Below are positions 44,177-64,000 of a stretch of 64,000 nucleotides of DNA, one piece after another. The notes beneath the pieces were generated by a model. It was given only the letters and a program-made list of their open reading frames with translations. It was not told the origin of the DNA and searched no databases. Location of the stretch: contig CAWKCK010000017.1 of assembly GCA_963848135.1 (NCBI GenBank), positions 248,001 to 312,000 on the forward strand, written 5' to 3'. Within the stretch, counting starts at the first letter, position 1, and each line of letters begins with the position of its first letter. The DNA is from an uncultured delta proteobacterium. Its GTDB lineage: Bacteria; Desulfobacterota; Desulfobacteria; Desulfobacterales; SG8-13. A program made the position numbers and the translations under genes.

Positions 44177-44854
44177 ATGGTTTCCGTGATCATCCCCACA
44201 CTTAACGAAGAAAAGGCGCTTCGGGCGACTCTCGAAGACCTGTTCCACCAAACAGGGCTGTATGAGGTCATCGTCGTTGATGGGGGCAGCAGCGATCGCA
44301 CCCGTGAAATTGCTGAGGCTGACCCTCGTCTGCGCTTCGTATCTGCTCCCAAAGGAAGGGCGGTGCAAATGAACACCGCAGCACGAATGGCCTGCGGAGA
44401 ATGGCTGCTCTTTTTGCACGCCGATACCCTGCTTCCCAAAAGCGCCATTTGCCGTCTGAACAACCTTGAAAATGACCACACCTATCAGGCGGGAGGATTC
44501 CGGCACAGATTCTCCGGAGTAGACTGGCGTTTGAAGGTGATCTCTGGCTTGGACAACGTCCGAGCCAGATTAACAGGGATTATCTATGGTGATCAGGCGT
44601 TATTTGTCAGGCGGCAGCTGTTTGAGCTCATGAATGGTTTCCCGGAACAACCGGTGCTCGAAGATCTTCTCATATGTAAAAAATTAAAGCGTGTCGTCAG
44701 GCCGGTGCTTCTCGATCAATACGTCATTACCGACGCACGAAAATTTGTCCAGATGGGTATCTGGAGAAGTTTTGCCCGCTGCCTTCTCATTTTGTTGTGC
44801 CATATTCTCCACTTTCCCTTCTTGCCGCAAAGGTTTTTTACCGACATCCGCTGA
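44177..44854 (+). CDS. Family 2 glycosyltransferase (TIGR04283-like)
   Basis: VIIPTLNEE, VVDGGSSD, GRAVQMN, LFLHADT, YGDQALFV, LED. Confidence 0.88.
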   Translation: MVSVIIPTLNEEKALRATLEDLFHQTGLYEVIVVDGGSSDRTREIAEADPRLRFVSAPKGRAVQMNTAARMACGEWLLFLHADTLLPKSAICRLNNLENDHTYQAGGFRHRFSGVDWRLKVISGLDNVRARLTGIIYGDQALFVRRQLFELMNGFPEQPVLEDLLICKKLKRVVRPVLLDQYVITDARKFVQMGIWRSFARCLLILLCHILHFPFLPQRFFTDIR

Positions 44855-45037
44855 GGCCTGTATCGATATATCAATCTTCATCCTTGAAGACGGCCGTGAA
44901 TTGTACTATGGATTATGCGACGGAGTAACCCCGCGGTTTGCATTTCGTTTCGATCCCCGGAAAAACAATTTATCTGCCAGGATGTATACATACGTGAAAA
45001 CCGGGGCAACCTTAATGGCATTCTGCATTCAGGCCAT

Positions 45038-45682
45038 ATGAAAGAAATCTGGATCATCGGTATCGGCCAGTTCGGTTTGCATGCGGTCCTAACTTTAGCC
45101 AATGAACATCCACATGCGCATTTGGTTTTGGTGGACCCCTTTGAAGATAATCTCCTAAGGGCTGCAGGGTCCAATCGCTTTTTGAAAGTCGCGGATGGTG
45201 TCTCATACACCGAAAAAAACCTTCTTTCAGCGGAAAAGGGGCCCGACTGGATCGTTCCCGCCCTTCCGATCCACCTTGCCGCTGAATGGTGCCTGCGGCG
45301 ACACGGCCCGCGGCTGCGTCGATATGCTGTCCCGAATACGCTCGATCCGCATATACCGAATCCGATGCGTGTCTCGGACGGGAATGTCTATACCAGCCAT
45401 GCCACTTTCCGATGCCCAGAAAATTGCTCCGAACCGGAAGATGTCTGCTCGATCACCGCAGAACCGCGCAAGAAAAATATGTTTGAAATCCTCGGGGATC
45501 TGCATCTGCCGCATTTCGAACCCATCGCCATTCGCAGTCACCAACTCGGACCCGGCATCGGCGGTTACCGACCGGCACAATTGTTCGCCCTGGACAAACG
45601 TTTAAACGCAACTCGAGGTGGAATTCTGCTGAGCACGGCCTGCCGCTGTCATGGTGTCACCACCGGTCTCTGGCACGATTAG
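45038..45682 (+). CDS. Rossmann-like NAD-binding protein with Cys-rich C-terminus
   Basis: IIGIGQFG; CPENC..P..C; SHQLGPGIGG; STACRCHGV. Confidence 0.7.
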   Translation: MKEIWIIGIGQFGLHAVLTLANEHPHAHLVLVDPFEDNLLRAAGSNRFLKVADGVSYTEKNLLSAEKGPDWIVPALPIHLAAEWCLRRHGPRLRRYAVPNTLDPHIPNPMRVSDGNVYTSHATFRCPENCSEPEDVCSITAEPRKKNMFEILGDLHLPHFEPIAIRSHQLGPGIGGYRPAQLFALDKRLNATRGGILLSTACRCHGVTTGLWHD

Positions 45683-45827
45683 CCGTCAGCCCAAACCATG
45701 ACCGCAGATTTTGACGAGGCACGACCGGCTGGGGGTATCGATAAACATTGCCGACATAGGGATGTGTTGGAGGCTGGCTTTAACGGCCTGTTAAACGGAA
45801 AGGGGATCAACGGAGAGGCTGGTTTTT

Positions 45828-46133
45828 CTACTTTTTCTCTGCTTCCAGATAGCCATCCAGGCACTTTCTCAGTTCTTCAACACCCGGTATGGTATCAAAT
45901 ACCAGTTCGCCGTCAATGACGATGGATGGCACCGGCATGGGGCGCCCTGCATTTTTAGACAGCTCGGCATATCTCCGGGCACCGCTTAGATTTTTGGTGA
46001 TGACGGTTTCCCATTCGATGTAATTTTCGTAGGCAGGAGCAACTTCAGCGACCACACGGGCCATATACTCACATGGGATTCAGTGGGCCCCCTCGTGCAA
46101 AACTTCAAGGCGTACTTTTTCAGACTTAATCAT
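45828..46133 (-). CDS. Selenocysteine-containing thioredoxin-fold protein (UxxC), 101 aa
   Basis: MIKSEKVRLEVLHEGAH-TGA(46082-46080)-IPCEYMARV...; the TGA aligns with the first Cys of CLPCFYM and CAACGYM in paralogs; hairpin downstream. Confidence 0.85.
46037..46070 (-). promoter_or_regulatory. Candidate SECIS hairpin
   Basis: GAGUA..UGGCC-CGUGU-GGUCG..UGCUC; apical loop begins ~22 nt after UGA. Confidence 0.5.
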
Positions 46134-46142
46134 GGCTTTACC

Positions 46143-46478
46143 TCAGGAATTCAATCCTTTTTCCCGTATCGCCTCTTCGATCGCCTCTTCTAGATCAAAC
46201 ATGGGCGGGATGGCGTCAAATACGAGTTCACCATCCATGAACAGGGAGGGTACCGGAGCGACCCGGCCGTATTTGTGGACATTTTTTTCTCCGAACAACG
46301 AATAGGATAGCTCAAGGAAGCGTTTCTTACCGGTACCTCGCATAAAATCCACTCGTTGGTATCGAATGTACTTCTCATATTTCGGCAATACTTCCCGCAC
46401 TGTTTCATCCATATAAAAGCAAGGCAAGCAATAGTCCGCTTTGTACATGACTTCTATCAATATTTTTGATCGATCCAT
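46143..46478 (-). CDS. Thioredoxin-fold protein (CLPC)
   Basis: DYCLPCFYM, cis-Pro-like VPSLFMDGELVF. Confidence 0.85.
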   Translation of the reverse strand: MDRSKILIEVMYKADYCLPCFYMDETVREVLPKYEKYIRYQRVDFMRGTGKKRFLELSYSLFGEKNVHKYGRVAPVPSLFMDGELVFDAIPPMFDLEEAIEEAIREKGLNS

Positions 46479-46951
46479 CTTGATCTCCGTCTTATTGCCC
46501 GACCTCGCAGAAGGTTGGGGCATTCATTCCGGCCGATATTAAACGGAAGGAATCGGTGTCCTGCGTCATATCAAATGCGGTGAATTTGTTCAACTCGAAT
46601 CTCGGTTATCCGCGCGGGCAGATGGCGAATGGTATGGGTTTGCATGGGGTAAACCGCCGGCATGCGTGGCGTCGAAATGCCCGTATCCGCTACCATCAAA
46701 CACAGTATGGACACTGCGATACCGTGTTGACAACCGGCTCTTATACTCATATAGTGCGCAGGTCAAAATAAATATGTAACATTTTGTAAGAATTATTAAA
46801 TCTTCAGTTCACTGCCATAAAACATTAAATCCCGCGGATTTTTCCACAACGGTAAAGACCAAGCACCGGCAGTGGGATGACGGCAGCGGTCCTTCCTTGA
46901 CCGGTATCACGCGCCATCGGTAAGATCGTATGCCTCCGGTAGAAACAGCCA

Positions 46952-47488
46952 ATGAAAAAAGGGCCTGACATCCACGAGAATGATGACATCCGGCTCTTTG
47001 GCGACCTTTCTGCCATTACGAGAGACGGTCCTCAACTCGACCTTATTCAACAGAGAGTTAAACAGTTTATTCTGAGCTTCGGCAGAAGACCACGAATTCT
47101 GGTCTGTCCTACCGATCCGGGGGCACACAAAAAGAAAATCAATCGCATCGGCTCGATTTTGGCGCAATGGGGTTTCGATGTCGACATCGGCCCATTGCAA
47201 AAATCGCCGGAACAGATTGCTCGTATGGCATTGGAAAACGACGTCCACATGGTCGTCATATTTTGCTCGGAACGACTGATTCATAGGGAAACCACAGAAT
47301 TGCTGAATGCGCTTAAACGCCTGGGCGCGGCCGAAATTCTCGTTGCCGTCTTCGGTTCTACCCCGGAATTCACCAAAAGCTGTGGCAGCCGGTCGAATCG
47401 GGCCGGCAAAGCAACCTTGATGGTATTAAACCCCAGATCAGCCAAAGACGTTATCTTCATGTTGGACAATATTACGCGAAAGAATTGA
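46952..47488 (+). CDS. Stand-alone, degenerate methylmalonyl-CoA-mutase-type cobalamin-binding domain
   Basis: FGRRPRILV...GFDVDIGPLQKSPEQIARMALENDVH; the DxHxxG motif is altered to GAHKKK. Confidence 0.8.
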   Translation: MKKGPDIHENDDIRLFGDLSAITRDGPQLDLIQQRVKQFILSFGRRPRILVCPTDPGAHKKKINRIGSILAQWGFDVDIGPLQKSPEQIARMALENDVHMVVIFCSERLIHRETTELLNALKRLGAAEILVAVFGSTPEFTKSCGSRSNRAGKATLMVLNPRSAKDVIFMLDNITRKN

Positions 47489-47492
47489 TCTC

Positions 47493-48464
47493 ATGGATGC
47501 CCAGTTTTATATCGACGGCGTTTTAGAACGGAATCGGGGCCTCATCGCCAAATCCATAACGTTGATCGAAAGCTCCCTGCCAATCCACCAGGAAACAGCC
47601 CAAACGATCATTGATAGCCTCCTGCCTTACGCCGGAAACGCCATGCGCATCGGTATTACCGGTGTGCCGGGAGTCGGCAAGAGCACCTTCATCGAAAGCT
47701 TCGGCATGATGCTGGTCGCAGAGGGCCACAACGTTGCCGTACTGGCTGTCGATCCGAGTAGTTCGAGAAGCGGCGGCAGTGTTTTGGGAGACAAGACACG
47801 CATGGAAAAACTGTCTATGCATGCGAATGCCTTTATAAGGCCGTCTCCCACCAGTGGCACTCTGGGGGGTGTTGCCAAAAAAACCCGCGAAACCATGATT
47901 GTCTGTGAGGCGGCCGGTTTTGATATTATTCTGGTTGAAACGGTCGGTGTCGGTCAGTCCGAAACGAGTGTGGCATCCATGGTTGATTTCTTCCTGGTGC
48001 TGATGCTGGCCGGAGCGGGCGACGAGCTTCAGGGGATTAAAAAGGGTATATTGGAGTTGGCCGACGCGATAGCGATCAACAAGGCCGATGGTAACAACAT
48101 CGATAGAGCCATGGAGGCCCGCAACGAGTATGCATCAGCGCTGAACTTGATGGAATCGAAATCTTCGGTCTGGGACGTACCGGTTCTGACCTGCAGCGCC
48201 TTAACCAAAGATGGCCTGAACAATATCTGGGCAACCATCCGTGATCATCACCAGAAACTTTCAGCCGCCGGAGAATTGACCGATAAGCGGCAATCTCAAT
48301 CGATCGACTGGATGTGGTCCTTGGTAGAGGAGGGATTGAAAGATCGGTTTTTCAAGGATCCTGATGTTAAAAACCGTTTGCAGAAAACCATCGCTGCCGT
48401 CGAGAATGGTTTGACTTCACCTTCGGCTGCGGCCGGGGAACTGCTGCATTTGCATGGAAAATAA
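47493..48464 (+). CDS. meaB: MeaB/ArgK G-protein chaperone
   Basis: GITGVPGVGKST, AVDPSS, GDKTRM, ETVGVGQSE, GDELQGIKKG, NKAD. Confidence 0.95.
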   Translation: MDAQFYIDGVLERNRGLIAKSITLIESSLPIHQETAQTIIDSLLPYAGNAMRIGITGVPGVGKSTFIESFGMMLVAEGHNVAVLAVDPSSSRSGGSVLGDKTRMEKLSMHANAFIRPSPTSGTLGGVAKKTRETMIVCEAAGFDIILVETVGVGQSETSVASMVDFFLVLMLAGAGDELQGIKKGILELADAIAINKADGNNIDRAMEARNEYASALNLMESKSSVWDVPVLTCSALTKDGLNNIWATIRDHHQKLSAAGELTDKRQSQSIDWMWSLVEEGLKDRFFKDPDVKNRLQKTIAAVENGLTSPSAAAGELLHLHGK

Positions 48465-49301
48465 CAACCATTTTCAAAAATTGACGAACCGTCTCCCAGC
48501 TATCCCTTCCGACTGAGCGCACCGGCGATGATATTCGGCCACGACATCGTCGAAAATGCTGAAATTCTGGCGACACTGGTTGATAATGTCGAAATCGTCC
48601 TGTTTCACACCCCCACCCAAAACAACTATCTATCTCGGCGGGACATTGCCAAGCTGTCTGAGATCAGCCGACAGACCGGGGTGAGCTATACCGTGCATTT
48701 GCCGACGGCGCTCGAAGTCGCTTCAACCGACTACAGGCGCCGTAAAGAGTCCGTCCGACTGGCGAAGGCGCTCATCGAACAAACCCTTGATTTTAAACCC
48801 TTGCATTATATTCTCCATGTTCCCTACTCTCCACCGACTCTGGTGTATGAGCCGGGAATGTATTTCAAACGCATCAGCAGTTCAGCGTGGCAGAACTGGC
48901 TGAGGCGGGCCACCGGCAGCCTGATTGAAATTACTACGGTTATCGGTAAGGCCGCCGAATTACTGCTCGAAAACATCAACTACTCGGTGTGTTATCTCGA
49001 GCCGCTGGTGCAAAAACGGTTTTGTGGCCTCTGCTTGGATGTGGGCCATCTTCTTCTGGGCCAGGAGCCGGTGACTCCTGAAATTGTACGGCATCGCGAA
49101 GTCATTAGGGAAATCCACATTCATGGAGTCAAGGGCCACACTGATCATCACACCTTAAGCATCCTTCCGCAGAAAAGGCTGTCAAAATGGCTGCAGCAAA
49201 TGGCGAATATGGGCTTTTCGGGTATTTGTAATCTGGAAGTGTTCTCCCCGGCCGACCTGAAATCTTCGGTCGATCTTATCGACCAAATAGGGAGGCAGTG
49301 A
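48454..49301 (+). CDS. TIM-barrel AP-endonuclease-2 family protein, CbiR-like cobamide-remodelling phosphodiesterase (probable -1 error at A run 48476-48480)
   Basis: YPFRL, YTVHLP, LLEN, CLDVGHL, IHIHG, DH, LEVF; adjacent to B12-handling genes. Confidence 0.7.
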
Positions 49302-49306
49302 CGGTT

Positions 49307-49666: not shown

Positions 49667-50455
49667 TCACTTTTTATCCCCCTGGCTTGGGCCATCCAAA
49701 GTCGCTGCCCTTTGGCATTCGCAAATAGACAAATAATCACTCAACCGATCGGCGATCTGCTGGGTGGTCATCACCTTTCCCTTGGAAACGACATTTCCGT
49801 CGATGACCAGACCGGGGGTAACGAAAACCCCCATTTCACGAAAATATGAAATATCGGTCCGCTTTCGAACCAACAACTGGTCACCGTTATCGGATTGGGC
49901 AACCGCCTGGACGACGTTGTCATATAACATGTTGCATTTTTCACATCCGGGGCCCAAAACTTCCACGATGTACTGATGTGGGCTGACGCCCGCGCCGTCG
50001 CCCCAATACGCATGAATCCACTTTCTCACCATCTGGCGGTCGGGCACGCTCCCCTGATGGAGTAAGCGCCCCCCCATCACCAGAGCGGGCGTCATCAGAA
50101 TACCAGCGTTGTATGCGGCGCATTCGCAGGGACGCAACGCCTCGTCCAATGCCGGGGACCACTGGGTCGCGGCCGTTGGGCAGCAGGCCGATTCCCGATC
50201 GGGTCCGTCAATCAAGGCGTGTATCTTCTCCCAGTCGACATCAAGGCCGGCTTTACGGGCGACATCCTTTGCGGTTCCCGGTTCAAGACCGAGAGATGAT
50301 GCAAAATGGCGGGCCTCTTCACTCGTATAGGATAGGTGCCTCACGGTTGCCGGGACACCAGCCGCGGCGACAATGTCCTTTACCATCCGGGTCAGGAAAT
50401 CACAGCGCGGACACGGCGGTTCAGTGCCAATAATCCAGATTTCCCCAGGTGTCAT
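49667..50455 (-). CDS. Two-domain thioredoxin-family protein (MTH895/Thioredoxin_3-like)
   Basis: PPCPRC...MTPALV and VLGPGCEKC...VTPGLVIDG. Confidence 0.85.
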   Translation of the reverse strand: MTPGEIWIIGTEPPCPRCDFLTRMVKDIVAAAGVPATVRHLSYTSEEARHFASSLGLEPGTAKDVARKAGLDVDWEKIHALIDGPDRESACCPTAATQWSPALDEALRPCECAAYNAGILMTPALVMGGRLLHQGSVPDRQMVRKWIHAYWGDGAGVSPHQYIVEVLGPGCEKCNMLYDNVVQAVAQSDNGDQLLVRKRTDISYFREMGVFVTPGLVIDGNVVSKGKVMTTQQIADRLSDYLSICECQRAATLDGPSQGDKK

Positions 50456-50489: not shown

Positions 50490-50738
50490 TCAGTCTTTCA
50501 GCAGCGCAACGATCCGCTCAGTTTTAAATACCTTTCCTTGTGCGACCACCATCCCCTCGATGATCAGGGCCGGGCTGAGCAGCAAACCGTACCGCTCGCG
50601 TATTTCCGGAGCCAGAGCCCACTTCTTTTCCACCGTTGCCTCCAAGCCGACGATGGTGACGGCTTTTTTTGTATGTTCCAACAGATCGTTGCACTGTTCG
50701 CAGGGTGGATCCAGACCAACCACTTCGATATGTATCAT
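50490..50738 (-). CDS. Small thioredoxin-family protein
   Basis: PPCEQC...SPALIIEG..GKV. Confidence 0.85.
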   Translation of the reverse strand: MIHIEVVGLDPPCEQCNDLLEHTKKAVTIVGLEATVEKKWALAPEIRERYGLLLSPALIIEGMVVAQGKVFKTERIVALLKD

Positions 50739-51883
50739 GATCCGAGGTTTTCCTTTTTTCGGTAAGGAGGGTTGGGATAGGCCGGGCTGAAGCACTGCAG
50801 ATCGACGATGTCGATCTGCAGAGACAAAGGTTCCGTCATAGCGTTAAGGGCATCGCGCACAACGGTTTCCAAATCCACCGGTTCCATTTTAACGCGGGCA
50901 TTTATCAGCAGCGTGCCGCCGGATGCCTTCTGGTCGGTCTGCGTGCCAAGGCGAGGATCGGAGTGGAGGTCGGTAAGGTTGGCCCATGTTGATTTGCCGG
51001 CGGAAGTAAACACAAGTTTCAGATGGCCGATGCCGGCATTTCGCTGTCGAAGCGCATCCCGAATCGTCAGCAAAAATCCCAGCATCAGCTCCCCCGGGAG
51101 AATAGGCGCTTTGGACCGGACCTTAACCGCCGCGTTGAGCCAGCCCAGAACCGCCTCGGCCTGCGCATACCGGTCATAGTCGATCTGCCGCAGCACGGTG
51201 TCGGCTCCGGGCCGACCACTGAGAAGGATTTCCAACCAGGTGTGCATGCCCATACCCTGCAGGGCGGATGTGGCGAGAATCTCCTTGCCCGGAAAACGAC
51301 CTCGAATGGCTTTTTGGATACGATCCTTCTCCGATGGTTCTATCAGGTCGCACTTGTTGAGTACGATGAGGTCCGCTTCCTCAAGCTGCTTTTCGAAGAG
51401 GTAGGCCACCTCTTCGGGAAAGGTCGATTCAGTCTCCTTCAAAAGCAGCTCGCGCACGCGATCCGGATCGACCATGGTGGAAAAGGGAGCGAAGGTGAAT
51501 GTGTCCCGGTAATGTATCTTGATGGGATTGGCGACGGCAGCGACAAAATCGGTGCAGCTGCCCACCGGTTCACCCAGGAGAATGTCCGGTTCGTAAATAA
51601 GTATTTTTTCGATCTGATGAATCAAGTCATCGAATTTGCAGCAGAAGCATCCCTCAACCACCTCCTCGATCGGCACATTCAGTTCGGCAAGCATCTGTCG
51701 AACAATGACCGTGTCGGCCAGGTTACCGCTCTGATCGTTGGTGACGATGCCCACGCGCATCCCCCTGCGGATGATGTCCCGGGCCAAGACCCCAAGCGCG
51801 GTGGTCTTGCCCGAGCCAAGGAATCCGCCAACAAAAGTCAGTTTAACCGGTTTGGCTGTGTTCAGCGGTTGGGGAATTTGCAT
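50735..51883 (-). CDS. CobW/COG0523-like GTPase
   Basis: GGFLGSGKTT, TNDQ, GCFCC, EPVGSC, NKCD. Confidence 0.9.
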   Translation of the reverse strand: MQIPQPLNTAKPVKLTFVGGFLGSGKTTALGVLARDIIRRGMRVGIVTNDQSGNLADTVIVRQMLAELNVPIEEVVEGCFCCKFDDLIHQIEKILIYEPDILLGEPVGSCTDFVAAVANPIKIHYRDTFTFAPFSTMVDPDRVRELLLKETESTFPEEVAYLFEKQLEEADLIVLNKCDLIEPSEKDRIQKAIRGRFPGKEILATSALQGMGMHTWLEILLSGRPGADTVLRQIDYDRYAQAEAVLGWLNAAVKVRSKAPILPGELMLGFLLTIRDALRQRNAGIGHLKLVFTSAGKSTWANLTDLHSDPRLGTQTDQKASGGTLLINARVKMEPVDLETVVRDALNAMTEPLSLQIDIVDLQCFSPAYPNPPYRKKENLGS

Positions 51884-55274: not shown

Positions 55275-55326
55275 TGAAAGCCCATCCGAGCCCCAGGGGG
55301 GACCCGGATGGTTACATACACTATGG

Positions 55327-55758: not shown

Positions 55759-56793
55759 TTACCAAGATTCCGGATACTTGGCATAGTACTGATCATACCA
55801 ATCTCTGGCTTCGAGCGCTTGGTCCATATGTTCCACCGGAACATCATAGGGCATGTCTCACCCAGGTGCGAACGTGTATCCGTGCTGACCTCCAGCAGCG
55901 AGACTCACGATGGCATCTTCTCTGGGTGATAGCAGCCCCAGGCTCAGAGCCAGGGTCAACTTCAGGTTGCCACCGAACCCAACGCCGTGTTTGCGGGCCA
56001 GGTCGCGGACAAAGGTCAAGTTGAGTTGCTCGTCGATGGCAAACCCGTGGGTACCGAGTTTGCAGACGTCTTCCATTACCTTGGTGCAGTCGCCGCAGAT
56101 GAAGAACGAGGACGTCTTGCCGGCATCATGTATCGCCTTGATGGCCGGCTGGCAGTTCGGGGTAACGAATTCTTGGAAAGTTTCGGATTTGATTTGAGAG
56201 GCAACCGGGTCGACGATGGCAACGATGTCGCAGCCCATTTCCGCATAAAATTGGGCGGCAAGGGCACCGACTTCACCGGCATATTTGAGTATTTGGTGGG
56301 CGAATTCCTTATGTTTGTACACGTCCGTGAAAATACGCACACCGGCCAGATGGGAGGCCAGGGTCAAAGGGCCGCAGAATAGACCCATCAGCGAACAGTC
56401 GAGTTCTTCAAGCTGGGGTTTGGCAATTTTTGCCGCTTCAAATATCACCGGCCACCGCCCGGAGTCTTTAGTGGGCATCGTCAAACCGGCCTCGGACGGT
56501 GTTTTGCCAGAGCACGGATGCGTGGTGACTGAAGGAACGTTGTCATCCCACCACTTGAGTTCACACCCTACAGAGTTGGCTTCCACTGACAGATCGAACA
56601 GCAGTGGAATACCATCGGCCTTGTAACGTTTGGCCGCGTTGACAACACCTTTTGCAAGGAGTTCGGGGTCTTTGAGCATTTTTTCCGCCGGCTCATTGAT
56701 CAAAAATGCACAATGAACCCCAGCGTACGGTACCCAGGGAGCTTTTTCGGTCCTCTTGCCCCGGTAGGCATCAATCAGCATTTGTTTGGCCAT
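55759..56793 (-). CDS. Selenocysteine-containing MtaA/UroD-family corrinoid methyltransferase, 344 aa
   Basis: DLSVEA, GPLTLA, DPVAS, FICG, GNL, then APG-TGA(55860-55858)-DMPYDVPVEHMDQALEARDWYDQYYAKYPESW*; paralog reads MPGCDL; SECIS-like hairpin follows. Confidence 0.9.
55828..55844 (-). promoter_or_regulatory. SECIS-like hairpin
   Basis: AUGUUCC-GGU-GGAACAU, a perfect 7-bp stem starting after a 13-nt spacer from the UGA. Confidence 0.8.
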
Positions 56794-57035: not shown

Positions 57036-57651
57036 TTATTCCAGCAGGATAATTCCATAATAATTAAAGGTCTCACCGGTGCTCGTGGCCACCTTCGATG
57101 AGGTTCCTAAATTCTTGAGCGTGCCGATGACGTCGATGGAAAACGATTCCACCGAGGGCCTTTTTTCCTGGGGAAAGCGGCACTCATCGGGATACGCACA
57201 GGTTTTGCATAGGGCGCAGCATTCACCCACCAGGCTGAACGCTTTGTAATACCCCTCCAAGAAAAGCATCCGCTCAATTCCGATGGTGCCCTTCCAGCAT
57301 TTTACCTGCATGCCGCGCTTGCGTCCGTTATTGCGGTAAAAATCGGCGCAGGTTTTGCTGCCCACCAGTAGCAGCGCGGTGGTATATTCGCTCAGAACCT
57401 TGCGCACCTTTTCGGGACGGGGAGTGGCCGGCGGGCAGCACCAGTTGGTGCTGTAATTCTTGCAGCCATAGCGACACTTCAGGTGCACCCATTCGGACAC
57501 GAGGAGTTTATCGACGCTGAAAGGGAATACAGCATTCAAGCCCGTATTTTTTCCCTTTTTCGAGCAGGCGTTTCAGCAGGTCGTTCGAGATACCTTGGTC
57601 GGTCTTGAATGGGACGACATTTGGTTTTTTCAAATTGATATGGCGGCTCAT
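57036..57651 (-). CDS. DUF2284 metal-binding protein (+1 frameshift at ~57541)
   Basis: KCRYGC..Y..NWCCPP, CALCKTC...C.F...RPSVESFSIDV; upstream frame MSRHINLKK...LLEKGKKYG. Confidence 0.82.
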
Positions 57652-57653
57652 TG

Positions 57654-58016
57654 TCAAGCTTCACTCTCGCTTCCAGGCTGAAATTTAATGCGAACGTCTT
57701 TGGGCAAGGCCATGTCCATGGCGACTTCTACGACTTTCAGAACGGCCGATGGGATCGCACAGGACGGGTGGCAGCCCGATTTTTCAGCCGCAATGTACAC
57801 AGGGTTGCGGGTCAGGGGTAGAAAAAGATCTTTCAAGGTCATCTCGGTCAGACCATCTGCAAGACGCTTGATCTGTTGGCATTCCGAACCCGATATTTCC
57901 ACGATTACTGATCGCTTACCTGTCTTACGGGCCTTGATCGTGCAGGCAAATCCGCAGATCCCAGGATCTGCAGTTATGAAGGCAACTTTCGGCGTATCGG
58001 CAGTGTCGGCGCTCAA
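57654..58016 (-). CDS. DUF6951-like Cys-containing protein
   Basis: DPGICGF, SEC, CHPSCAIP, ALPKDV. Confidence 0.7.
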   Translation of the reverse strand: MSADTADTPKVAFITADPGICGFACTIKARKTGKRSVIVEISGSECQQIKRLADGLTEMTLKDLFLPLTRNPVYIAAEKSGCHPSCAIPSAVLKVVEVAMDMALPKDVRIKFQPGSESEA

Positions 58017-58160: not shown

Positions 58161-60223
58161 TTATTGATCGAGAATTTCGTCCGGCACGATGCCGCGCAGA
58201 TGCGGGAATTCATCGGTCATGTGGGGCATCTGCATGGCTTCCATGAATTCCTGCTGGAAGTTGGGCTCCACTGTCAGCTCGATGTATTCCACGTTACGCG
58301 AACACCAATTGGCTTCGACTGCGTTTTTTCACATTCAGCAGGGCCGCACGGCAGCCATCACCGGCCGCATTGCCCACACTCTGGATCATCTCGATCTCAC
58401 AGTCCGGGAACAACCCCATGATCAGCGCCTTGGTGCGATCAACGTGGGTGCCGAAAGCCCCGGCAATTTTGACCTTGTCTAATTTTTCGAGACCCATGCG
58501 CTGGACCATCAGCTTGCAACCGGCATACAGGGCACCCTTGGCCAGCTGAATCTGTCGGATGTCCTTCTGGGTGATGACGATATCCTGATCGATGCTCGAC
58601 TCCTCGGCCCAGGCCAGCACGAACTCAGGCTGGTTGGTGTCCGGGTTTTTCCGAAACCGTGAAAACTCCTTGAGTCCCTTTTTGTTGAAAACGCCGCTCT
58701 TGGTGATGACGCCGCTGGTGTAAAGCTCGGCGAGCACGTCCAGAATCCCCGACCCGCAGATGCCCTTGGCCTTCATCTCTTTCGGCTCGGAGAACTTGCG
58801 CCAGGCATCGCGACCGATAACCTTGTAGTCGACTTCCTTGGTCTCGGGATCGATCTCGATGCGCTCGATAGCCCCGGGAGCCGCGCGCATACCGTAGGAC
58901 AGCTGGGCGCCTTCGAGGGCCGGCCCTGTGGCGCAGGAGGACGAGATCAGCTTGTGCCGGTTGCCCAGCACCAGCTCACCGTTGGTGCCGATGTCGATGA
59001 TCAGCTGGTTTTCCTCGTGCTTGTACGGTTCTTCGGCGATCAACACGCCCACGTTGTCCGCACCGACGAAACCGGCTTCGTTGGGCAGCACGAACATGTA
59101 GGAGGACGGGTTGATGCAGACACCCAGATCGCGGGCCTTGATGTCGATACTGTGGTGGATGACCGGCGGAAACGGCGCCAGTCCCACGTACTCGGGGTTC
59201 AGCCCCAGCAGGATGTGGTGCATGGCCGTATTGAAACCGATGGTGATGTCTTCGACATCTCCGGTCTCCAGCCGCAGATAGGTTTTGCCCTCTTCGGGCA
59301 CTTCCACGTATTCCACCGGGCCCTTCTTCGCCCTTTTTCTTCTTTTTCTTCTTCTTGGGCGGATGGGTGCCGGCCACGGCCTTTTCGACGAGCTCGTTGA
59401 TGCCCTCGATGATGTCGTCACTCATGCGCTTAAGCCCGTCGGGGGTGGTCATGTGGAAGGTAATGCGGGCCATGACGTCCTCACCGTATTTGCACTGGGG
59501 GTTCATCATGGAGACCGTATCGATCACCTCCATCGTGGTCAGGTCACAGAAATAAGCCGCCACGGTCGTGGTCCCCACGTCGATGGCCAGTCCGTAGGCG
59601 TGCTCGACCTTTCCCGGGCGCACACGGATAATCTCTTTGTCGTTCCAGACACTGACGGTTACTGCCCATTTGCCCTCCCGCAGCGCATCGGGAAGTGCAC
59701 GCAAGGTAAAAATGTCGGCGGTCAGGTTTTGCAAGCCGTACTCCTGCTCAAGCCTCCGGCATATGCGTTCGAAGTCGGCCGTCGGTTCCTCGAAAGTGGG
59801 CGGATCGACTTCGACGTAATACAGGCGTATGGCCGGGTTGTGGTCGATGGGGATGTCGCGAGCCGCCTTGCTGACGACCTGTTTACCGGCCCGGGATTCC
59901 TCGGGCACAAAAACCAGCATGTCACCCTGGACTGTGGCCACACACCCCAACCGAAATCCCTTTTCCTTCCGATCGGGGTTGATGAACTTGTCTTCTTCCT
60001 CCTGCCAAGCGCTGCAGTTGGACTTACTGGAAGTGATGCCGTATTTTTCGAAATGGCCTTCCTCCACGCGCACAATGCATTTTCCGCAAACTTTCTTTTC
60101 GCCGCACAACGCTTCGATGTCCACACCCAAAAGCCGTGAGGCTTCAATGAGGTTGACGCCTTTGGGCACTTCACCTCTGCGCCCGGAAGGCTGAAATATC
60201 ACCATTGCCTTATCAGAATCCAT
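58161..60223 (-). CDS. ATP-dependent corrinoid reductive activator (RACo/DUF4445 ASKHA) with N-terminal [2Fe-2S]; +1 frameshifts at ~59320 and ~58320
   Basis: CGEKKVCGKC..RLGC, AIDVGTTT, NPQ..YGEDV, GFVGAD, DIGTNGE, ATGPALEG, GICGSG, ITQKDIRQIQLAKGA, AGAFG, GNAAG; corrected C-terminus ...VEYIEL...FQQEFMEAM...DQ*. Confidence 0.92.
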
Positions 60224-60541: not shown

Positions 60542-61207
60542 TTATCCTTTATTCCGCATCTCACGCAGCCGGCCGATCATCTTGATACCTTCCGACACCG
60601 CGTTCCCGGCTGATTCGGCGTAACCGTCAGCACCGAACAGGTTGGCGACATCCTTGGTCACCGGAGCACCACCCAGCATGATGGCCACGTTGGGGTTTTT
60701 CTCCTTGATCATCGCGATGACCTTTTTCATGCCCAGCATTGTCGTGGTCATCATCGCACTCATGGCCACCACCTCACTATCGGTACGAAGCTGCTCCTCG
60801 ACAAAATTCTCCAACGGCACATCGCGGCCCAAATCGTGAACCTCCCAGCCGGCCACGTCAAACATCATCTTCACCAGGTTCTTGCCGATGTCGTGCACAT
60901 CGCCCTGGATCGAACCGATGACCACCTGAGCGTTGATCCCGTCTGTCTGCTTGGGCACATGCGGTCGCAAAATGGCCAGTCCTGCATACAGTGCATCGGC
61001 GCACATCAACACTTCGGGCACGAAATATTCGTTTTTATCGTAAAGCTCACCGACAATCTCCATCCCGGCAGCCAGGCCGTCCATAATACCGTCCAATGGG
61101 ACTTGTCCGTCATCCAGCCATGCCTGGGCAGCTTCCTTGACCGTGTCCTCTTCGTACTCGACTACACCGTTTTTCATCTGTTCGATAAGTTCTTCTTTCG
61201 TTGCCAT
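60542..61207 (-). CDS. Methyltransferase corrinoid protein (MtaC/MttC-like)
   Basis: GDVHDIGKNLV (DxHxxG), SAMMTTT, GGAP. Confidence 0.95.
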   Translation of the reverse strand: MATKEELIEQMKNGVVEYEEDTVKEAAQAWLDDGQVPLDGIMDGLAAGMEIVGELYDKNEYFVPEVLMCADALYAGLAILRPHVPKQTDGINAQVVIGSIQGDVHDIGKNLVKMMFDVAGWEVHDLGRDVPLENFVEEQLRTDSEVVAMSAMMTTTMLGMKKVIAMIKEKNPNVAIMLGGAPVTKDVANLFGADGYAESAGNAVSEGIKMIGRLREMRNKG

Positions 61208-61275
61208 TGAATCCTTCTCCTTATTGTTAAATGAAAAGCCCTCTCTCTTGCCAACGGTCCTCGGCGCGAGAATTA

Positions 61276-62328
61276 TTAAAGCCGGCCAACAGCCGGGCTC
61301 GGATTCTTTCCGTACGTGTGGGCCGTGTCCACACAGGCCTTCATGTTTTCATCCTTAATGGCCGGCCACAAGTCGCAACCGGGCATGACAGCGTCCACAC
61401 CACCGTCGATCATGTCCTTAATGTGATCGATAGCAACCTGTTTGGGAGTTTCGGGGTCACAGGTCATCTTGTACGTGTCCACGTTCCCCATGAACAGGAC
61501 ATCCGGCCCCAGGATTTCGCGTCCCTTGCGAACATCACACTTGATGTCGACGGTCAAGCCGTCGGCACCGCATTCGTTCATCATGGCCAACAGCGGTTCG
61601 GTCTGACCGCAGATGTGCAGCAGTTTGGGTGATTTCCAGGCCGCCAGGATTCTGGTCAATCGCGGTTGGATAAACTCTTTAAAGGTCCGCGGGCTCAACA
61701 AATCCGCCGCCACACCGGGTTCGCGCAAAGTGATGTAATCGCAACCGGCCGCCTGAAGCTTCAAACCGATCTTGATGATCATGTCGGTGAGTTTGTCGAG
61801 AACATTGGCCACCATTTCTTTCTGTTTGAAAACTCCTTTGAGCATCAGATCCAATTCCAACATTTGGCCGGCCTGGGTAAACGGACCCAGTTGCCAGCAG
61901 CCGATGGGCAGATCCGGGGCTTCTTTCTTGATGATCTCGATCGCCTTGGGCAGCATCGGCAGACGCCCCAATTCGGTGATGTTTTCCGGAATTTCAACCT
62001 CTTCAAGAGTTGACCAAATTTTATTGGGAATTGTCGGGTAGAGAATATCCTCGGAATCCTCGTACAAACTGATCGTGTTGCCCACGGCTTCAGACTCCAT
62101 GGTCATGTCGTAGGGTATAACCACACAGTCGAAGTTCATCATCTTGGCCGACCAGATGGCTGATTGGGCCATGCGCTCGGCGTCGGTATGAACGGTAGCA
62201 AACTTTAAATTGGCCTTTTCGATACCCGGCATTACCACCATTCCCATACCGCTGAAAAATGGCATGGTGTCGATCGGTTCCTTACGCAGAAGACGCATGA
62301 CGCGTTCCTTGGGTGTCAGTTCCGCCAT
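61276..62328 (-). CDS. MtaA/CmuA (UroD-fold) methylcobamide methyltransferase
   Basis: GPFT, LLSP..F, Zn ligands HICG and PGCD. Confidence 0.9.
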   Translation of the reverse strand: MAELTPKERVMRLLRKEPIDTMPFFSGMGMVVMPGIEKANLKFATVHTDAERMAQSAIWSAKMMNFDCVVIPYDMTMESEAVGNTISLYEDSEDILYPTIPNKIWSTLEEVEIPENITELGRLPMLPKAIEIIKKEAPDLPIGCWQLGPFTQAGQMLELDLMLKGVFKQKEMVANVLDKLTDMIIKIGLKLQAAGCDYITLREPGVAADLLSPRTFKEFIQPRLTRILAAWKSPKLLHICGQTEPLLAMMNECGADGLTVDIKCDVRKGREILGPDVLFMGNVDTYKMTCDPETPKQVAIDHIKDMIDGGVDAVMPGCDLWPAIKDENMKACVDTAHTYGKNPSPAVGRL

Positions 62329-62382
62329 AATGTGACTCCTTTCTCAATGGTACCCAAACGTATAAGTGGGTTAAAACCAGGT

Positions 62383-63339
62383 TTAGGCCAATGACTTCAG
62401 TTGTTCCACGAAATCGGGAAACAGTTTGAACAGTGGGTGATTCGGGTCCTTGGGCAGCTTCTTGGTTTCAGCAAAAGCTGCCGTGGCCAGAAAGGCATCA
62501 GCCTCGGCGACTGCCGGCAGGATGCGTGTGGCACCCGCCATGGGGCCCGAAAATATCATGTCATGAAAGAAGAAGGCTGAAAGGGATTCTAAGGCCGCAT
62601 CGGTAGCCGACCATCCCTTGAAGTCCCACATGTCCTTAAAACGTTTCAAATCCATGTAGGAACCATTGCTCGGAGCGCTGGCCGTCGGAAAGCCCCATTT
62701 CTCTTTGACCATCCGATTGGCGATACCGCAAAACGCCGTGGCCGGCCCATTCATCACCGAGGTGTCGACAAAAATACTTTCGAACTTGGCGCCCACTTTA
62801 TCGATGGCGTCCAGCAGTCTCTGGGTGCCAGTGACGCGTCCGCTCGGCATCTGATCTTCCTGGTCGAATGCCACCAGGAGCACGTGTTTGACGCCGATAT
62901 CGGCAATTTCCTTGATTTCGGTTTCCAGATCCTTCTCCCAGACCGTCAGGCTGTTGTAAAACATACGGTCGAGCAACCCCTTTTCGGCACAATATGCCGC
63001 GCCCGCCAATTTGGGCTTCATCACCCAGGCGTCGATACAAAAAGGCATGCTGCTGACCTCACTGACGAAATCGATAAATGCTTTGAACTCATCACCCGTG
63101 TTGGCGACGATATCCGCCATTCCTGGTACGCCTGTTTCAGCCGTCAGGCGTTCCTGGGTCTTGAGGAGTTCCTCCGCCCGCTTTTCATCGAATCCTTCCT
63201 TGCGCTTGCCGGTAAACACCTTGTCGCCTTTCTGAAAAATCGAGCTGACGCATACGCAGGGGTACTCGCCGGGCTGCCCGCCAAATTTTACCCCACCAAC
63301 CTCGCAAACCTTTTGCTCGGTGCCGATTTGAAACATCAT
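62383..63339 (-). CDS. MtrH-family pterin:corrinoid methyltransferase (MtgA-like)
   Basis: EQKV..VGGVKFGGQPGEYP, SIF, PFCIDA, YNSL, VDT, GFPT..APSN. Confidence 0.88.
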   Translation of the reverse strand: MMFQIGTEQKVCEVGGVKFGGQPGEYPCVCVSSIFQKGDKVFTGKRKEGFDEKRAEELLKTQERLTAETGVPGMADIVANTGDEFKAFIDFVSEVSSMPFCIDAWVMKPKLAGAAYCAEKGLLDRMFYNSLTVWEKDLETEIKEIADIGVKHVLLVAFDQEDQMPSGRVTGTQRLLDAIDKVGAKFESIFVDTSVMNGPATAFCGIANRMVKEKWGFPTASAPSNGSYMDLKRFKDMWDFKGWSATDAALESLSAFFFHDMIFSGPMAGATRILPAVAEADAFLATAAFAETKKLPKDPNHPLFKLFPDFVEQLKSLA

Positions 63340-63736
63340 TTACCTCCTCTGTTCAAAATTTATTACACCTTCCCTACCACGGGAATAAACACTTCGGTCA
63401 TTATGGTAATATTGACAACATCCTTTTATATGAACGGACAGGAGCTGAACATAGTCCAATAGACGATTTTTCATGGGATCACAGATGATTTTGGTCACCT
63501 GGTATGGCCACACTGTAAAACTCTTTTATTGGGCGTGATAATGTTCTATGATGCTTGCAATAAGGGAATTCAACAGCCTGGATTAATTATTTATTTGATT
63601 TGTTTTATCGGTATATTGGGCGATACTCAAAGGTCCCAAATGCCATAGAACGATTCGCGGACTAAACCACAACCTTAGCTATGTAAAAGATAAATTAAAT
63701 AATAACAGATTTTTAAGTTTCAAAAGGTAATGTATT

Positions 63737-64000
63737 ATGAAAGAAAAATTTGCCCACTTGGTCGACAAAGCCATTGAACTGGGTGCCACCGATGCCAAAC
63801 AGATACCGGTCAGCAGCATCGTTTTCGATTCCAGGTCCTATTTGAAATGCCGCTTCGGTTGCAACCGGTGGGGTAAATACTGGACCTGTCCGCCCCATCT
63901 CGAAATTACGCCGGAACGGTTCATGGATGCCTTCGCTCAATACCACCAGGCGATCGTCATCAAATCCTCAGATCCCAAAATCGGGCAGGATGTCAGTGTG
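63737..64000 (+). CDS. DUF2284 metal-binding protein (partial)
   Basis: MKEKFAHLVDKAIELGATDAK...LKCRFGCNRWGKYWTCPPH; runs off the window. Confidence 0.82.
   Translation, partial: MKEKFAHLVDKAIELGATDAKQIPVSSIVFDSRSYLKCRFGCNRWGKYWTCPPHLEITPERFMDAFAQYHQAIVIKSSDPKIGQDVSV

Follow-up and report, generated by a model that had tools for sequence, protein, structure and literature searches.

A putative corrinoid-dependent methyl-transfer operon of Desulfobacterales with a predicted selenoprotein methyltransferase and a thioredoxin-like partner

Which reaction is served by a gene cluster that combines several corrinoid-linked methyltransferases, one of them apparently a selenoprotein, with thioredoxin (Trx)-like proteins and CobW GTPases? 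The question is raised by a stretch of 64,000 nucleotides (hereafter, the window) from an uncultured delta proteobacterium (Desulfobacterales; SG8-13; GCA_963848135.1, CAWKCK010000017.1, positions 248,001-312,000, forward strand). Pfam and NCBIfam profile searches recovered, on the minus strand from 63339 to 49307, every gene listed in a preliminary description of this DNA, all co-oriented (Table 1). The cluster extends ~7 kb past the window end, where a third MtaA-like gene (MtaA3), V4R proteins and a two-component system are found, the PAS histidine kinase and response regulator of the latter being located just beyond the window; the left boundary drawn earlier, 44177, is too generous, as it includes genes foreign to the operon. 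Searches of the window and the flank beyond its end with Pfam and NCBIfam revealed no transporter gene within the operon. Gene order is preserved in up to 57 loci from other genomes, so the grouping exceeds chance. The MeaB/B12-domain/CbiR module also adjoins the cluster in several loci (e.g. L002, L005, L007, L018 and L029), and we only infer that it is linked to the operon. Translation of the nearby HUIPC-family pair gives CLPC in the first gene and an in-frame TGA (HUIPC) in the second. An arsenosugar-type glycosyltransferase (TIGR04283, 219.6 bits) is encoded at 44099-44854. RNA-library contigs of relatives (4 runs, 3 studies) cover most operon genes and, DNA carry-over being possible, hint weakly that the operon may be transcribed there.

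Table 1. Features of the cluster and its surroundings (positions in the window)
Feature	Position	Strand	Evidence	Loci retaining it
MtrH-family methyltransferase	62383..63339	-	PF02007 169 bits	
MtaA1, MtaA-like UroD-fold methyltransferase	61276..62328	-	PF01208 197 bits; His-x-Cys...Cys zinc motif	
Corrinoid (B12-binding) protein	60542..61207	-	PF02310, PF02607; TIGR02370 197.5 bits	
RACo-type ATP-dependent corrinoid reductive activase	58294..60223	-	Fer2, RACo_linker, Raco_middle, RACo_C_ter; two overlapping frames	
DUF6951 Cys-rich protein	57654..58016	-	PF22263 100 bits	41/51
DUF2284 predicted metal-binding protein	57036..57539	-	PF10050 151 bits	34/52
SecMT, predicted selenoprotein UroD-fold methyltransferase	55759..56793	-	translation; one in-frame TGA at 55858-55860	
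SECIS-like hairpin	55824..55849	-	folded; 11 nt past SecMT TGA; GGY loop	
CAAC Trx-fold partner of SecMT	55327..55731	-	weak NF047660 match, 31 bits	
Small protein, two CxxC pairs (zinc-ribbon-like)	54948..55406	-		29/50
MTH895/ArsE-type Trx-like protein, CKRC	54528..54773	-	PF13192; TIGR00412 74.5 bits vs cut-off 62	34/47
CobW1, COG0523/CobW-family GTPase	53493..54524	-	PF02492, PF07683	42/44
TrxR-like flavoprotein, CSVC motif	52464..53381	-	TIGR01292	24/40
PadR-family regulator	51862..52320	-	PF03551	12/40
CobW2, second CobW-family GTPase, CFCC motif	50735..51886	-	PF02492	18/37
Thioredoxin_3 (Trx3b)	50490..50795	-	PF13192, TIGR00412	16/37
Double Thioredoxin_3	49667..50455	-	PF13192, TIGR00412	27/35
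B12-binding domain protein / MeaB GTPase / CbiR cobamide-remodelling phosphodiesterase	46952..49301	+	NF006958 495 bits, NF041277 191 bits	
HUIPC-family Trx-like gene pair	45828..46523	-	NF047660 216 bits, in two stretches	

The methyltransferases of the operon are of three kinds, namely an MtrH-family protein, one or two MtaA-like enzymes with a His-Cys-Cys site and SecMT, and its one corrinoid protein (conserved in 31/37 loci) is accompanied by the RACo activase. Members of the MtrH family transfer methyl groups between corrinoid and pterin. The protein found here falls below model cut-offs (NF002142, 278.5 vs 287; MtgA model, 154.6 vs 550) and is presumed to be a methyl-corrinoid:tetrahydrofolate enzyme; its gene is single-copy in the genome, and one copy is likewise present in each of 5/5 genomes with a window-type cluster. 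MtaA1 scores 213 with TIGR01463 (cut-off 235.4), displays the motifs LLHICGQ and PGCD and has 4AY7 as its closest solved relative (E 2e-47); MtaA is conserved in 24 of 31 loci. Both ordinary MtaA-like proteins, MtaA1 and MtaA3, have the His-Cys-Cys site, which Kountz and Balskus (PMC10418091) tie to sulfur and selenium substrates. The RACo gene named earlier is present but not as an intact frame: compared with L007, two 1-nt insertions, one near 59325 and one near 58321, both in A-runs, break it, and in 8/8 relatives checked the gene is a single open frame of 687-699 aa. If genuine, the frameshifts would leave this strain with a crippled system.

When SecMT is aligned with MtaA, its Sec residue falls on the zinc-ligand Cys of PGCD, and Phe stands in place of the His of HxCG. 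Among the SecMT homologues listed, 117 of 120 stop at the TGA and the other three are full-length Cys forms. Across related loci, the position is TGA in 53/57 and TGC in 1/57, while the remaining three escaped the search pattern, two of them showing one TGA. Over 25 sequences, the SECIS-like hairpin has 86.9% of cells paired, compared with 23.6-62.2% when the partners are slid, as well as compensatory changes at three pairs; it has no match in Rfam. Furthermore, the host genome encodes tRNA-Sec, SelA and SelB. Collectively, the Sec/Cys alignment, the TGA conservation, the conserved hairpin and the Sec machinery argue that SecMT, as predicted from its sequence, is a real selenoprotein. Together with the gene families, this evidence bears out the earlier view that the cluster encodes corrinoid-linked methyl transfer and that one of its UroD-fold methyltransferases is a selenoprotein. 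The predicted structure (pLDDT 97.2) superimposes on MtaA (TM 0.86/0.88 to 4AY7) at 26% identity to 4AY7/4AY8. Its putative metal site consists of Cys233 and Sec312, zinc being assumed from homology. A possible replacement metal ligand in the His-less enzymes is His148; 25 of 28 His-less sequences keep it, and in 35 His-Cys-Cys sequences it is not the most common residue at that position.

In our tree, SecMT is nested within a His-less (Phe-Cys-Cys) clade, and MtaA1 and MtaA3 fall within the His-Cys-Cys clade. The His-less clade is almost always accompanied by a COG0523 GTPase and is coupled to a CA(A/P)C Trx-fold domain, encoded adjacently here and fused in Cys-type relatives. The CAAC gene adjoins SecMT in 51/53 loci, and its product is 69-100% identical between hosts, with the motif IDVLTLDSxQCAACGYMMES invariant in 23 sequences. 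In P0131, P0133, P0134, P0135, P0177, L060 and L063, the methyltransferase itself carries a homologous domain, fused to its C-terminus. The first four proteins align with SecMT at 35-36% identity and P0177 at 33%; all five have the Phe-Cys-Cys site of the SecMT clade, their Trx domains are HUIPC-like and/or of the MTH895 type and include a TLDS..CA(A/P)C motif, and in P0134 the MTH895-type domain is fused to the methyltransferase as well. The new element is the membership of SecMT in a His-less UroD clade whose Cys-type members have a fused CA(A/P)C Trx domain. Since this domain is part of the methyltransferase in the nearest Cys-type relatives, the Trx set most likely serves the predicted Cys-Sec site of SecMT itself, and not, as had been proposed, the recycling or removal of the product.

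The other accessory genes are conserved to different degrees. TrxR, PadR, CobW2 and Trx3b are each found in only 30-60% of loci; the TrxR assignment holds at the level of a TrxR-like gene but not of equivalog identity (TIGR01292, 257 vs cut-off 343). As the preliminary description requires, redoxin and CobW genes accompany SecMT in other genomes (CAAC in 51/53 loci, CobW1 in 42/44). The ArsM/DUF2284 and MbdU selenoprotein models of NCBIfam match the DUF2284 protein through their C-terminal domain. The small protein with two CxxC pairs matched no Pfam or NCBIfam family, and its true start is probably downstream of the ORF start. With five Trx-fold ORFs and a TrxR-like protein, the redox set is large for mere enzyme upkeep, and this count speaks against such a role.

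Of 301 genomes sampled across the order, 45 have a SecMT orthologue. In other Desulfobacterales, the clade holds the second-methyltransferase (MT2) slot, next to MttB, non-Pyl MtmB or UroD enzymes with the His-Cys-Cys site. In 7 loci the genes run corrinoid protein, non-Pyl MtmB, SecMT, CAAC, CobW, with MttB next in 3 of them; locus L059 reads BCCT, MT-Trx, RACo, MttB, and L060 reads UroD, corrinoid protein, MT-Trx, RACo, CobW. Moreover, the genes of SecMT relatives have catabolic MT1 genes and genes for betaine or TRAP transporters as neighbours. MtrH is absent from 5/5 and 3/3 genomes whose clade member holds the MT2 slot. With the clade standing at the expected MT2 position beside MttB or non-Pyl MtmB, the earlier assignment of the Sec enzyme as an MT1 is unsupported. 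Genomes without MtrH nevertheless retain 3-5 pterin-binding (PF00809) proteins, one of which could be the true MT2, SecMT then being a further MT1; and since the window holds both MtrH and SecMT, simply equating SecMT with MT2 would leave one of the two apparently superfluous. The host genome (98.65% complete) contains dsrA and acetyl-CoA synthase, in agreement with the sulfate reducer with a Wood-Ljungdahl pathway described before. MtaB is absent from it, and tblastn with one query each found neither MtmB nor MttB. Within these searches, the reported lack of MtaB and MttB extends to the genome; that of any O-demethylase-type MT1 was loosely put, since UroD-fold enzymes belong to that type; just outside the window, another MtaA-like gene is seen instead of a conventional MT1.

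Overall, we give a probability of roughly 0.55 to a conserved Desulfobacterales operon for corrinoid-dependent methyl transfer, in which the MtaA-like enzymes demethylate the substrate, MtrH passes the methyl group to tetrahydrofolate, SecMT acts on the partner side and the Trx and CobW proteins provide upkeep. The substrates are most likely methylated sulfur or selenium compounds, feeding methyl-tetrahydrofolate. A PAS histidine kinase and a response regulator of its own would control the operon; the MtaA-like enzymes would move the methyl group from a methylated S or Se compound to Co(I), and MtrH would hand it to tetrahydrofolate for oxidation via the Wood-Ljungdahl pathway. SecMT would exchange methyl groups between a soft nucleophile, such as a thiol, selenol or sulfide, and the corrinoid protein. 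Its Cys-Sec pair would form a metal-binding, oxidation-prone site, kept reduced by a chain from the TrxR-like protein via Trx3 to CAAC-Trx and re-loaded with metal by the CobW GTPases.

Alternatively, all UroD-fold enzymes including SecMT might be MT1 for soft-atom methyl compounds (candidates are DMS, methanethiol and methylselenides), with MtrH as the sole MT2 and the Trx set acting on the product. We regard this as unlikely: the Trx-fused relatives reside in quaternary-amine clusters (BCCT, MttB), where a soft-atom product is not expected, and the strict adjacency and high identity of the CAAC protein are those of a fixed enzyme partner. Even so, MtrH is present, is the only one of its family in the genome and tracks the window-type cluster, pterin-binding proteins exist in the MtrH-less genomes, and an operon free of transporters suits a membrane-permeant substrate. 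MtsA-type enzymes, moreover, act as MT1 on thioethers. Demethylation of S and Se compounds by Mlps is also discussed by Kountz and Balskus (PMC10418091).

Less probable still is the reverse direction, in which the operon would carry out in soluble form what Mtr does in methanogens. MtrH would load the corrinoid from methyl-tetrahydrofolate, and the MtaA-like enzymes and SecMT would pass the methyl group to sulfide, selenide or a metalloid, so as to detoxify or volatilise it. MtrH of methanogens does run from pterin to corrinoid, and the Wood-Ljungdahl pathway of the host is a source of methyl-tetrahydrofolate. The fusion of DUF2284 to arsenite methyltransferase in NCBIfam models and the nearby arsenosugar-type glycosyltransferase point the same way, as does ClMlp2, which methylates selenide from methylcobalamin in vitro according to PMC10418091. 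Direction cannot be read from sequence, but the catabolic MT1 and betaine/TRAP transporter genes beside SecMT relatives suit catabolism. The MT2 slot held by the SecMT clade in MtrH-less genomes could also mean that SecMT is the UroD-fold methyl-corrinoid:tetrahydrofolate MT2 missing from Desulfobacterales methylotrophy, its Cys-Sec pair being a redox switch only. This seems quite improbable, as MtrH would become redundant in the window, the strictly conserved soft ligands suit a thiol or selenol better, and we know of no UroD-fold enzyme that uses pterin. In addition, the Cdm paper classes bacterial 'MtaA' MT2 enzymes with MtqA, AcsE and MetH, not with UroD (PMC13222342).

Among known enzymes, Methanosarcina mazei MtaA (4AY7/4AY8) is the best sequence and fold match of both MtaA1 and SecMT, sharing the TIM barrel and the Cys-ligand positions. 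In SecMT, however, Phe replaces the His ligand and Sec the second Cys; scores stay below the curated model cut-offs, and the host is a sulfate reducer, a group for which we know of no coenzyme M use. MtgB-MtgC-MtgA (glycine betaine), CmuA-CmuB and CdmB-CdmC-CdmA (chloromethane) share the arrangement of MT1, corrinoid protein, MT2 to tetrahydrofolate and activase, with an MtrH-like or MtqA-like MT2 and, in Cmu and Cdm, a UroD-fold MT1, but are without selenoprotein, Trx partner and CobW genes. CmuA is fused to its corrinoid domain. CdmB has neither zinc nor Cys ligands, as described in PMC13222342. At the fold level only (TM 0.43-0.64), distant matches include the zinc-thiolate methyltransferases BHMT and MetE, among them 'oxidized' BHMT (1LT7) and 'oxidized' MetE (1XR2). 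The zinc-ligand cysteines of these enzymes form a disulfide with loss of zinc, which may serve as a model for the proposed upkeep role of the Trx partner, although neither BHMT nor MetE contains Sec or a reductase domain of its own. The CAAC partner and the fused domains weakly match the HUIPC-motif family of Trx-like selenoproteins (NF047660, 31-45 bits); the CAAC protein lies below the cut-off of 105 and has Cys, not Sec, and a true HUIPC pair (216 bits) is located 9 kb from its gene. This family is listed in a 2026 review (PMC13188914), which cites Haft and Tolstoy 2025.

The preliminary description, whose author knew of no characterised pathway of this composition, missed the closest prior work, the type 1 mlp clusters of the Kountz and Balskus 2023 preprint (PMC10418091) and the Methanococcus voltae sdm genes cited there. 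By text search, the preprint mentions neither Desulfo- nor MtrH, CobW or a thioredoxin partner. These systems share with our operon several MtaA-like UroD methyltransferases, one corrinoid protein, a RACE/RACo activase, anaerobic hosts, proposed methyl-S/methyl-Se substrates and a strong tie to selenium-using hosts; the clusters are, however, mostly found in Firmicutes, are without a tetrahydrofolate methyltransferase and encode Mlps described as His-Cys-Cys. Compared with them, the operon adds MtrH, the His-less Sec enzyme with a Trx-fold partner dedicated to it, a TrxR-like protein and CobW GTPases, and SecMT, with its predicted Sec at the metal site and its own Trx-like partner, would represent an enzyme type without earlier description.

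The cluster is a corrinoid methyltransferase system with a selenocysteine-bearing, thioredoxin-coupled UroD enzyme. The window covers bases 248001-312000 of contig 17. Between 63339 and 49307 of its minus strand, searches with Pfam and NCBIfam models recovered the complete gene series named in the preliminary description, in the same order (table). The host genome (6.03 Mb, 98.65% complete) encodes dsrA and acetyl-CoA synthase, which supports the earlier view of a sulfate reducer possessing the Wood-Ljungdahl pathway. The window also contains genes for multihaem cytochrome, NrfD and ferredoxin, as is typical of sulfate reducers. No MtaA-partner MtaB was detected in the host genome, nor was MtmB or MttB (tblastn, one query each). 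The genome also carries hgcA (G000:C5:172390-173367; 421 bits, cut-off 275), and mercury methylation by the host is therefore predicted.

Features of the cluster and its surroundings, with the gene series listed in its order on the minus strand. Counts give loci in other genomes with a match (at least 35% identity, same strand) over loci long enough to include the gene at the spacing seen in the window.
Feature	Position	Strand	Loci with match	Remarks
DDE transposase	1224-2807			
PEP carboxylase gene	2961-5521			split into three frames
TIGR04283 glycosyltransferase	44099-44854	+		219.6 bits
255-aa protein	44915-45682	+		no family match
Pair of HUIPC-family Trx-like genes	45828-46523	-		second has in-frame TGA
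B12-binding-domain protein, MeaB, CbiR	46952-49301	+		beside the operon
MtrH-family protein		-	20/31	L021 and L029, counted as misses, have MtrH just past the retrieved flank
MtaA1 (MtaA-like URO-D)	61276-62328	-	24/31	count for MtaA-like gene
Corrinoid protein		-	31/37	
RACo	58294-60223	-	35/46	count for C-terminal part; two overlapping frames
DUF6951 protein		-	41/51	
DUF2284 protein		-	34/52	
SecMT (selenoprotein UroD-fold methyltransferase)	55759-56793	-		one in-frame TGA, 55858-55860
SECIS-like hairpin	55824-55849			
CAAC protein (QCAAC Trx-like)	55327-55731	-	51/53	
Two-CxxC, zinc-ribbon-like protein		-	29/50	no family match
Thioredoxin_3 (MTH895/ArsE type; Trx3)		-	34/47	
CobW GTPase (CobW1)		-	42/44	
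TrxR-like flavoprotein		-	24/40	
PadR		-	12/40	
Second CobW (CobW2)		-	18/37	
Two more Thioredoxin_3 genes		-	27/35 (double Trx3); 16/37 (Trx3b)	one double-domain

The cluster continues beyond the window. Within the next 7 kb are another DUF2284 gene, MtaA3 (the third MtaA-like gene, with 61% identity to MtaA1) and genes for a response regulator, a PAS histidine kinase and two V4R-domain proteins. Further out than the V4R genes, immediately upstream of the sensor genes, a third CobW adjoins an FGE/SUMF1-type gene (L001:8614-9756, i.e. G000:C17:319614-320756) with weak matches to EgtB and to the selenoneine synthase SenA. Relative to the 93%-identical locus L007, RACo is interrupted in the window assembly by two one-base insertions, one near 59325 and one near 58321, each within an A-run. 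Since RACo is a single open frame of 687–699 aa in all eight relatives examined, and since the PEP carboxylase gene of the same window is likewise split, these breaks are probably homopolymer assembly indels rather than true pseudogenes; RACo may nevertheless carry a real frameshift. In-frame TGA codons upstream of Trx3a (three in 35 codons), and many others across 49307-50795, were judged non-coding. At the other end of the window, positions 1-14000, which include the DDE transposase, have a GC content of 0.42–0.47 against 0.49–0.58 elsewhere.

Read through its TGA from the Met at 56793, SecMT is a protein of 344 aa. The U lies in the motif APGUDMP, at the position taken by the Cys of PGCD in MtaA1 and MtaA3 and matching the APGC motif of the solved MtaA structure 4AY7. 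A length of 311 aa, indicating entries cut at the TGA, is shared by 117 of the 120 best-listed database homologues; the other three are full-length Cys forms. Cys forms are represented by P0006, P0053, P0110 and P0124 among the database proteins and by locus L058, and an alignment reveals 33 conserved residues downstream of the TGA. Of 57 related loci in other genomes, 53 have TGA at this position and one, from an Acidobacteriota MAG, has TGC; the search pattern did not match the other three, two of which carry a single TGA within their URO-D match. In L058, the Acidobacteriota MAG with the Cys form, a downstream gene (13134-15092) encodes a MIP (aquaporin-type) channel joined to a CobW GTPase domain. 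The host genome has tRNA-Sec, SelB (374 bits, cut-off 242) and SelA (622 bits, cut-off 268). Furthermore, a SECIS-like hairpin with a GGY loop lies eleven bases past the TGA. In 25 diverse sequences, 86.9% of its cells pair, compared with 23.6–62.2% when the partners are slid; compensatory changes occur at three pairs, with a covariation score equalled in 7 of 500 shuffles, and synonymous positions are near-invariant in the stem and variable farther downstream. An Rfam scan of 44000-64000 (E up to 5) detected neither a SECIS nor any other credible RNA family. Folded as a whole, the 81 nt downstream of the TGA do no better than shuffles (z 0.38), so that the case for the hairpin rests on the alignment test.

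Both MtaA1 (197 bits) and SecMT (160 bits) match the UroD TIM-barrel family PF01208, and the AlphaFold model of SecMT (pLDDT 97.2) has MtaA 4AY7 as its best fold match (TM 0.86/0.88). Both fall below the cut-offs of TIGR01463 (235.4; MtaA1 213, SecMT 126), MtaA_Meth (400; 200 and 105) and MtbA (600; 148 and 87). The zinc-ligand motif His-x-Cys...Cys is present in MtaA1 and MtaA3 (HICG, PGCD) and absent from SecMT (FICG, PGUD), in which Phe occupies the His position of HxCG. Kountz and Balskus (PMC10418091) link the His-Cys-Cys site to sulfur or selenium substrates, not to oxygen. Because both Cys ligands are kept in MtaA1 and MtaA3, an O-demethylase function for these two enzymes was discarded.

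An exhaustive search for SecMT relatives among 1.84 billion representative sequences showed that SecMT and its Cys forms constitute a tight group (at least 62% identity). The next full-length relatives (~28–39%) have Phe (or Leu) in place of His and keep both Cys. Several of the database proteins (P0131, P0133, P0134, P0135 and P0177) are longer, with C-terminal Trx-fold domains recognized by the HUIPC and/or MTH895/ArsE models; the fused domains carry the motif TLDS..CA(A/P)C.YM, plainly the same as in the CAAC protein of the window. Moreover, P0134 has both Trx domain types, arranged in the order of the window genes SecMT, CAAC and Trx3. In a midpoint-rooted FastTree phylogeny, built without named reference enzymes and without L040, L044, L049, L053 and L058, SecMT is nested in the His-less (Phe-Cys-Cys) clade beside P0133; MtaA1 and MtaA3 belong to a separate His-Cys-Cys clade, and a third clade lacks the Cys ligands. 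A candidate replacement ligand is His148, which 25 of 28 His-less sequences share; in the His-Cys-Cys clade, His is not the majority residue at this position.

The MtrH-family protein scores 169 with PF02007 (threshold 22.8), 278.5 with NF002142 (287) and 154.6 with the MtgA equivalog (550). The TrxR-like protein, with a CSVC redox motif, reaches 257 bits with TIGR01292 (cut-off 343). The CAAC protein, at 31 bits against the NF047660 cut-off of 105, is below the HUIPC-family threshold, which the HUIPC pair beside the operon passes (216 bits). The glycosyltransferase near this pair is of the type named for 'arsenosugar biosynthesis' and adjoins the 255-aa protein, which is again found beside the cluster in L002, L005, L018 and L029. 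An arsenic-related role, suggested by this glycosyltransferase and by the ArsE-type naming, was dropped, as nothing else supported it. MeaB GTPase, a stand-alone mutase-type B12-binding domain and CbiR stand beside the operon in several genomes, and this module may supply or remodel cobamide for the corrinoid protein.

By the counts in the table, in particular those for the CAAC protein (69–100% identical between hosts) and CobW1, the redoxin and CobW genes are kept with the methyltransferase across loci, the opposite of what would have weakened the preliminary description. Of 301 genomes sampled from the host's order, Desulfobacterales, 45 have a SecMT orthologue with at least 67% identity, and identity between genera is 67–97%. 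The orthologue's TGA is present in all 45 except one fragment that ends before it, and three more of the 301 genomes have the fused Cys type alone. RNA-library contigs from four libraries of three studies, mostly 85–95% identical, cover TrxR, CobW1, CAAC, SecMT, RACo, the corrinoid protein, MtaA1 and MtrH; one of 1095 nt spans nearly all of SecMT, including the TGA. The RNA runs contain 6–10% of the sampled words and derive from relatives, and per-gene depth was not used. Given possible DNA carry-over, the contigs are a weak sign of transcription.

SecMT and its fused relatives are also found in other contexts. At seven loci (L044, L045, L046, L048, L052, L053 and L055), one of them from the cultured Desulfocicer vacuolatum DSM 3385, the gene order is corrinoid protein, full-length non-Pyl MtmB homologue, SecMT, CAAC and CobW. 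The MtmB homologues (460–472 aa) have no in-frame TAG and in these Desulfobacterales loci are always followed by SecMT, which is 67–76% identical to that of the window. An MttB-family gene comes next in three of the seven, and a GntR/UTRA regulator lies upstream in three. We know of no described function for non-Pyl MtmB homologues in bacteria. A 2026 study (PMC13044021) reports that methanogenesis from tetramethylammonium and choline requires a non-Pyl MtmB homologue. The fused genes were read directly in L060 and L063, and the positions of L059, L061 and L062 come from the 301-genome survey. In L059 (genome G287) the fused Cys-type gene is flanked by a BCCT transporter and RACo, and MttB is close by; L060 has the order DctP, UroD, IclR, corrinoid protein, MT-Trx, RACo, CobW and DUF1638.

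Collectively, these data fix the gene list, the selenocysteine, the Trx fusion and the conserved gene order. To these parts we add a mechanism, to which we assign a probability of about 0.55. MtaA1 and MtaA3, on account of their His-Cys-Cys site, would be the substrate-side enzymes for a methylated sulfur or selenium compound, and MtrH would be the link to tetrahydrofolate. SecMT would carry methyl to or from the corrinoid protein, with a soft nucleophile as the other partner. That a Trx domain is fused or adjacent suggests that the thioredoxin chain serves the Cys-Sec pair of SecMT itself, and the near-constant CobW suggests a metal that must be re-inserted. BHMT and MetE structures are among the distant fold matches of the SecMT model; the oxidized forms of these two enzymes are in a zinc-free state, which provides a model for such Trx upkeep. 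The earlier interpretation is supported as to a corrinoid methyl-transfer system with a Sec UroD enzyme, but not as to redoxins acting on the product, given that the Trx is fused or adjacent to the enzyme.

Other assignments of the UroD-fold enzymes have to be weighed against this mechanism. In the preliminary description all of them were substrate-side methyltransferases (MT1). MtrH is found exactly once in each of five genomes of the window's cluster type and is absent from all five examined genomes of the MtmB-linked type and all three with fused genes; by their gene contexts and this absence, the His-less enzymes thus occupy the position expected of the second methyltransferase (MT2), which moves methyl off the corrinoid protein. 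We consider the all-MT1 model unlikely, and operation of the system in the reverse, methylating direction more doubtful still. The MtrH-less genomes hold three to five pterin-binding proteins each, one of which might be the real MT2, and there is very little probability that SecMT itself is a UroD-fold tetrahydrofolate methyltransferase.

Equally improbable, in our estimate, is that the Cys-Sec pair forms a redox-active selenenylsulfide centre instead of a zinc site, receiving two electrons per methyl through TrxR, Trx3 and CAAC-Trx and acting on an organometal. Methylmercury or methylarsenicals would then be bound on Cys and Sec, Co(I) would take the methyl, and MtrH would pass it to tetrahydrofolate and CO2. 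This alternative would apply to the cluster type of the window, the one type in which MtrH, DUF2284 and the larger redoxin set occur; hgcA is present in the host as well. 'Oxidative demethylation' of methylmercury has been reported for sulfate reducers, and this alternative, if true, would provide its gene basis.

Corrinoid methyltransferase systems power the anaerobic use of methylated compounds, and we know of no earlier case of Sec at a ligand position of a zinc-thiolate-type methyltransferase. If the preferred reading, a Sec enzyme maintained by thioredoxin and CobW, is right, SecMT is a selenoprotein corrinoid methyltransferase and the first such class with a built-in thioredoxin partner. 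The enzyme is not rare, given its presence in 45 of 301 Desulfobacterales genomes, in several genera and in sediment RNA libraries. The wider His-less, Trx-fused clade may also be the missing second methyltransferase with which sulfate reducers break down betaine, methylamines and quaternary amines, an enzyme that Kivenson et al. call uncharacterised (PMC8318568). The MtmB-linked form in the cultured D. vacuolatum makes the question testable. In the literature searched, from which the papers on Haft's HUIPC, MbdU and ArsM/DUF2284 families lay outside, no report of a Sec UroD methyltransferase was found. The text of a 2026 selenoproteome review (PMC13188914) is without MtaA, UroD or 'uroporphyrinogen decarboxylase'; in that of the mlp preprint (PMC10418091), Desulfo-, MtrH and CobW are absent and thioredoxin occurs only among the references.

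Compared with known systems, the cluster differs from the methanogen MtaA and MtsA systems, which have no selenoprotein methyltransferase, Trx partner or CobW genes, and the same holds for MtgBCA, CmuAB and CdmBCA as far as they are described (PMC13222342). The nearest described relatives, type 1 mlp clusters and the sdm genes of M. voltae, likewise have no selenoprotein methyltransferase, Trx partner or CobW. With MtaA1, SecMT and MtaA3 beside a corrinoid protein and RACo, the cluster has the composition that defines type 1 mlp (at least two MtaA-like genes, a corrinoid protein and RACE/RACo). However, type 1 mlp clusters are without a tetrahydrofolate methyltransferase and have His-Cys-Cys sites, whereas the cluster described here has MtrH and, in SecMT, a site without His.
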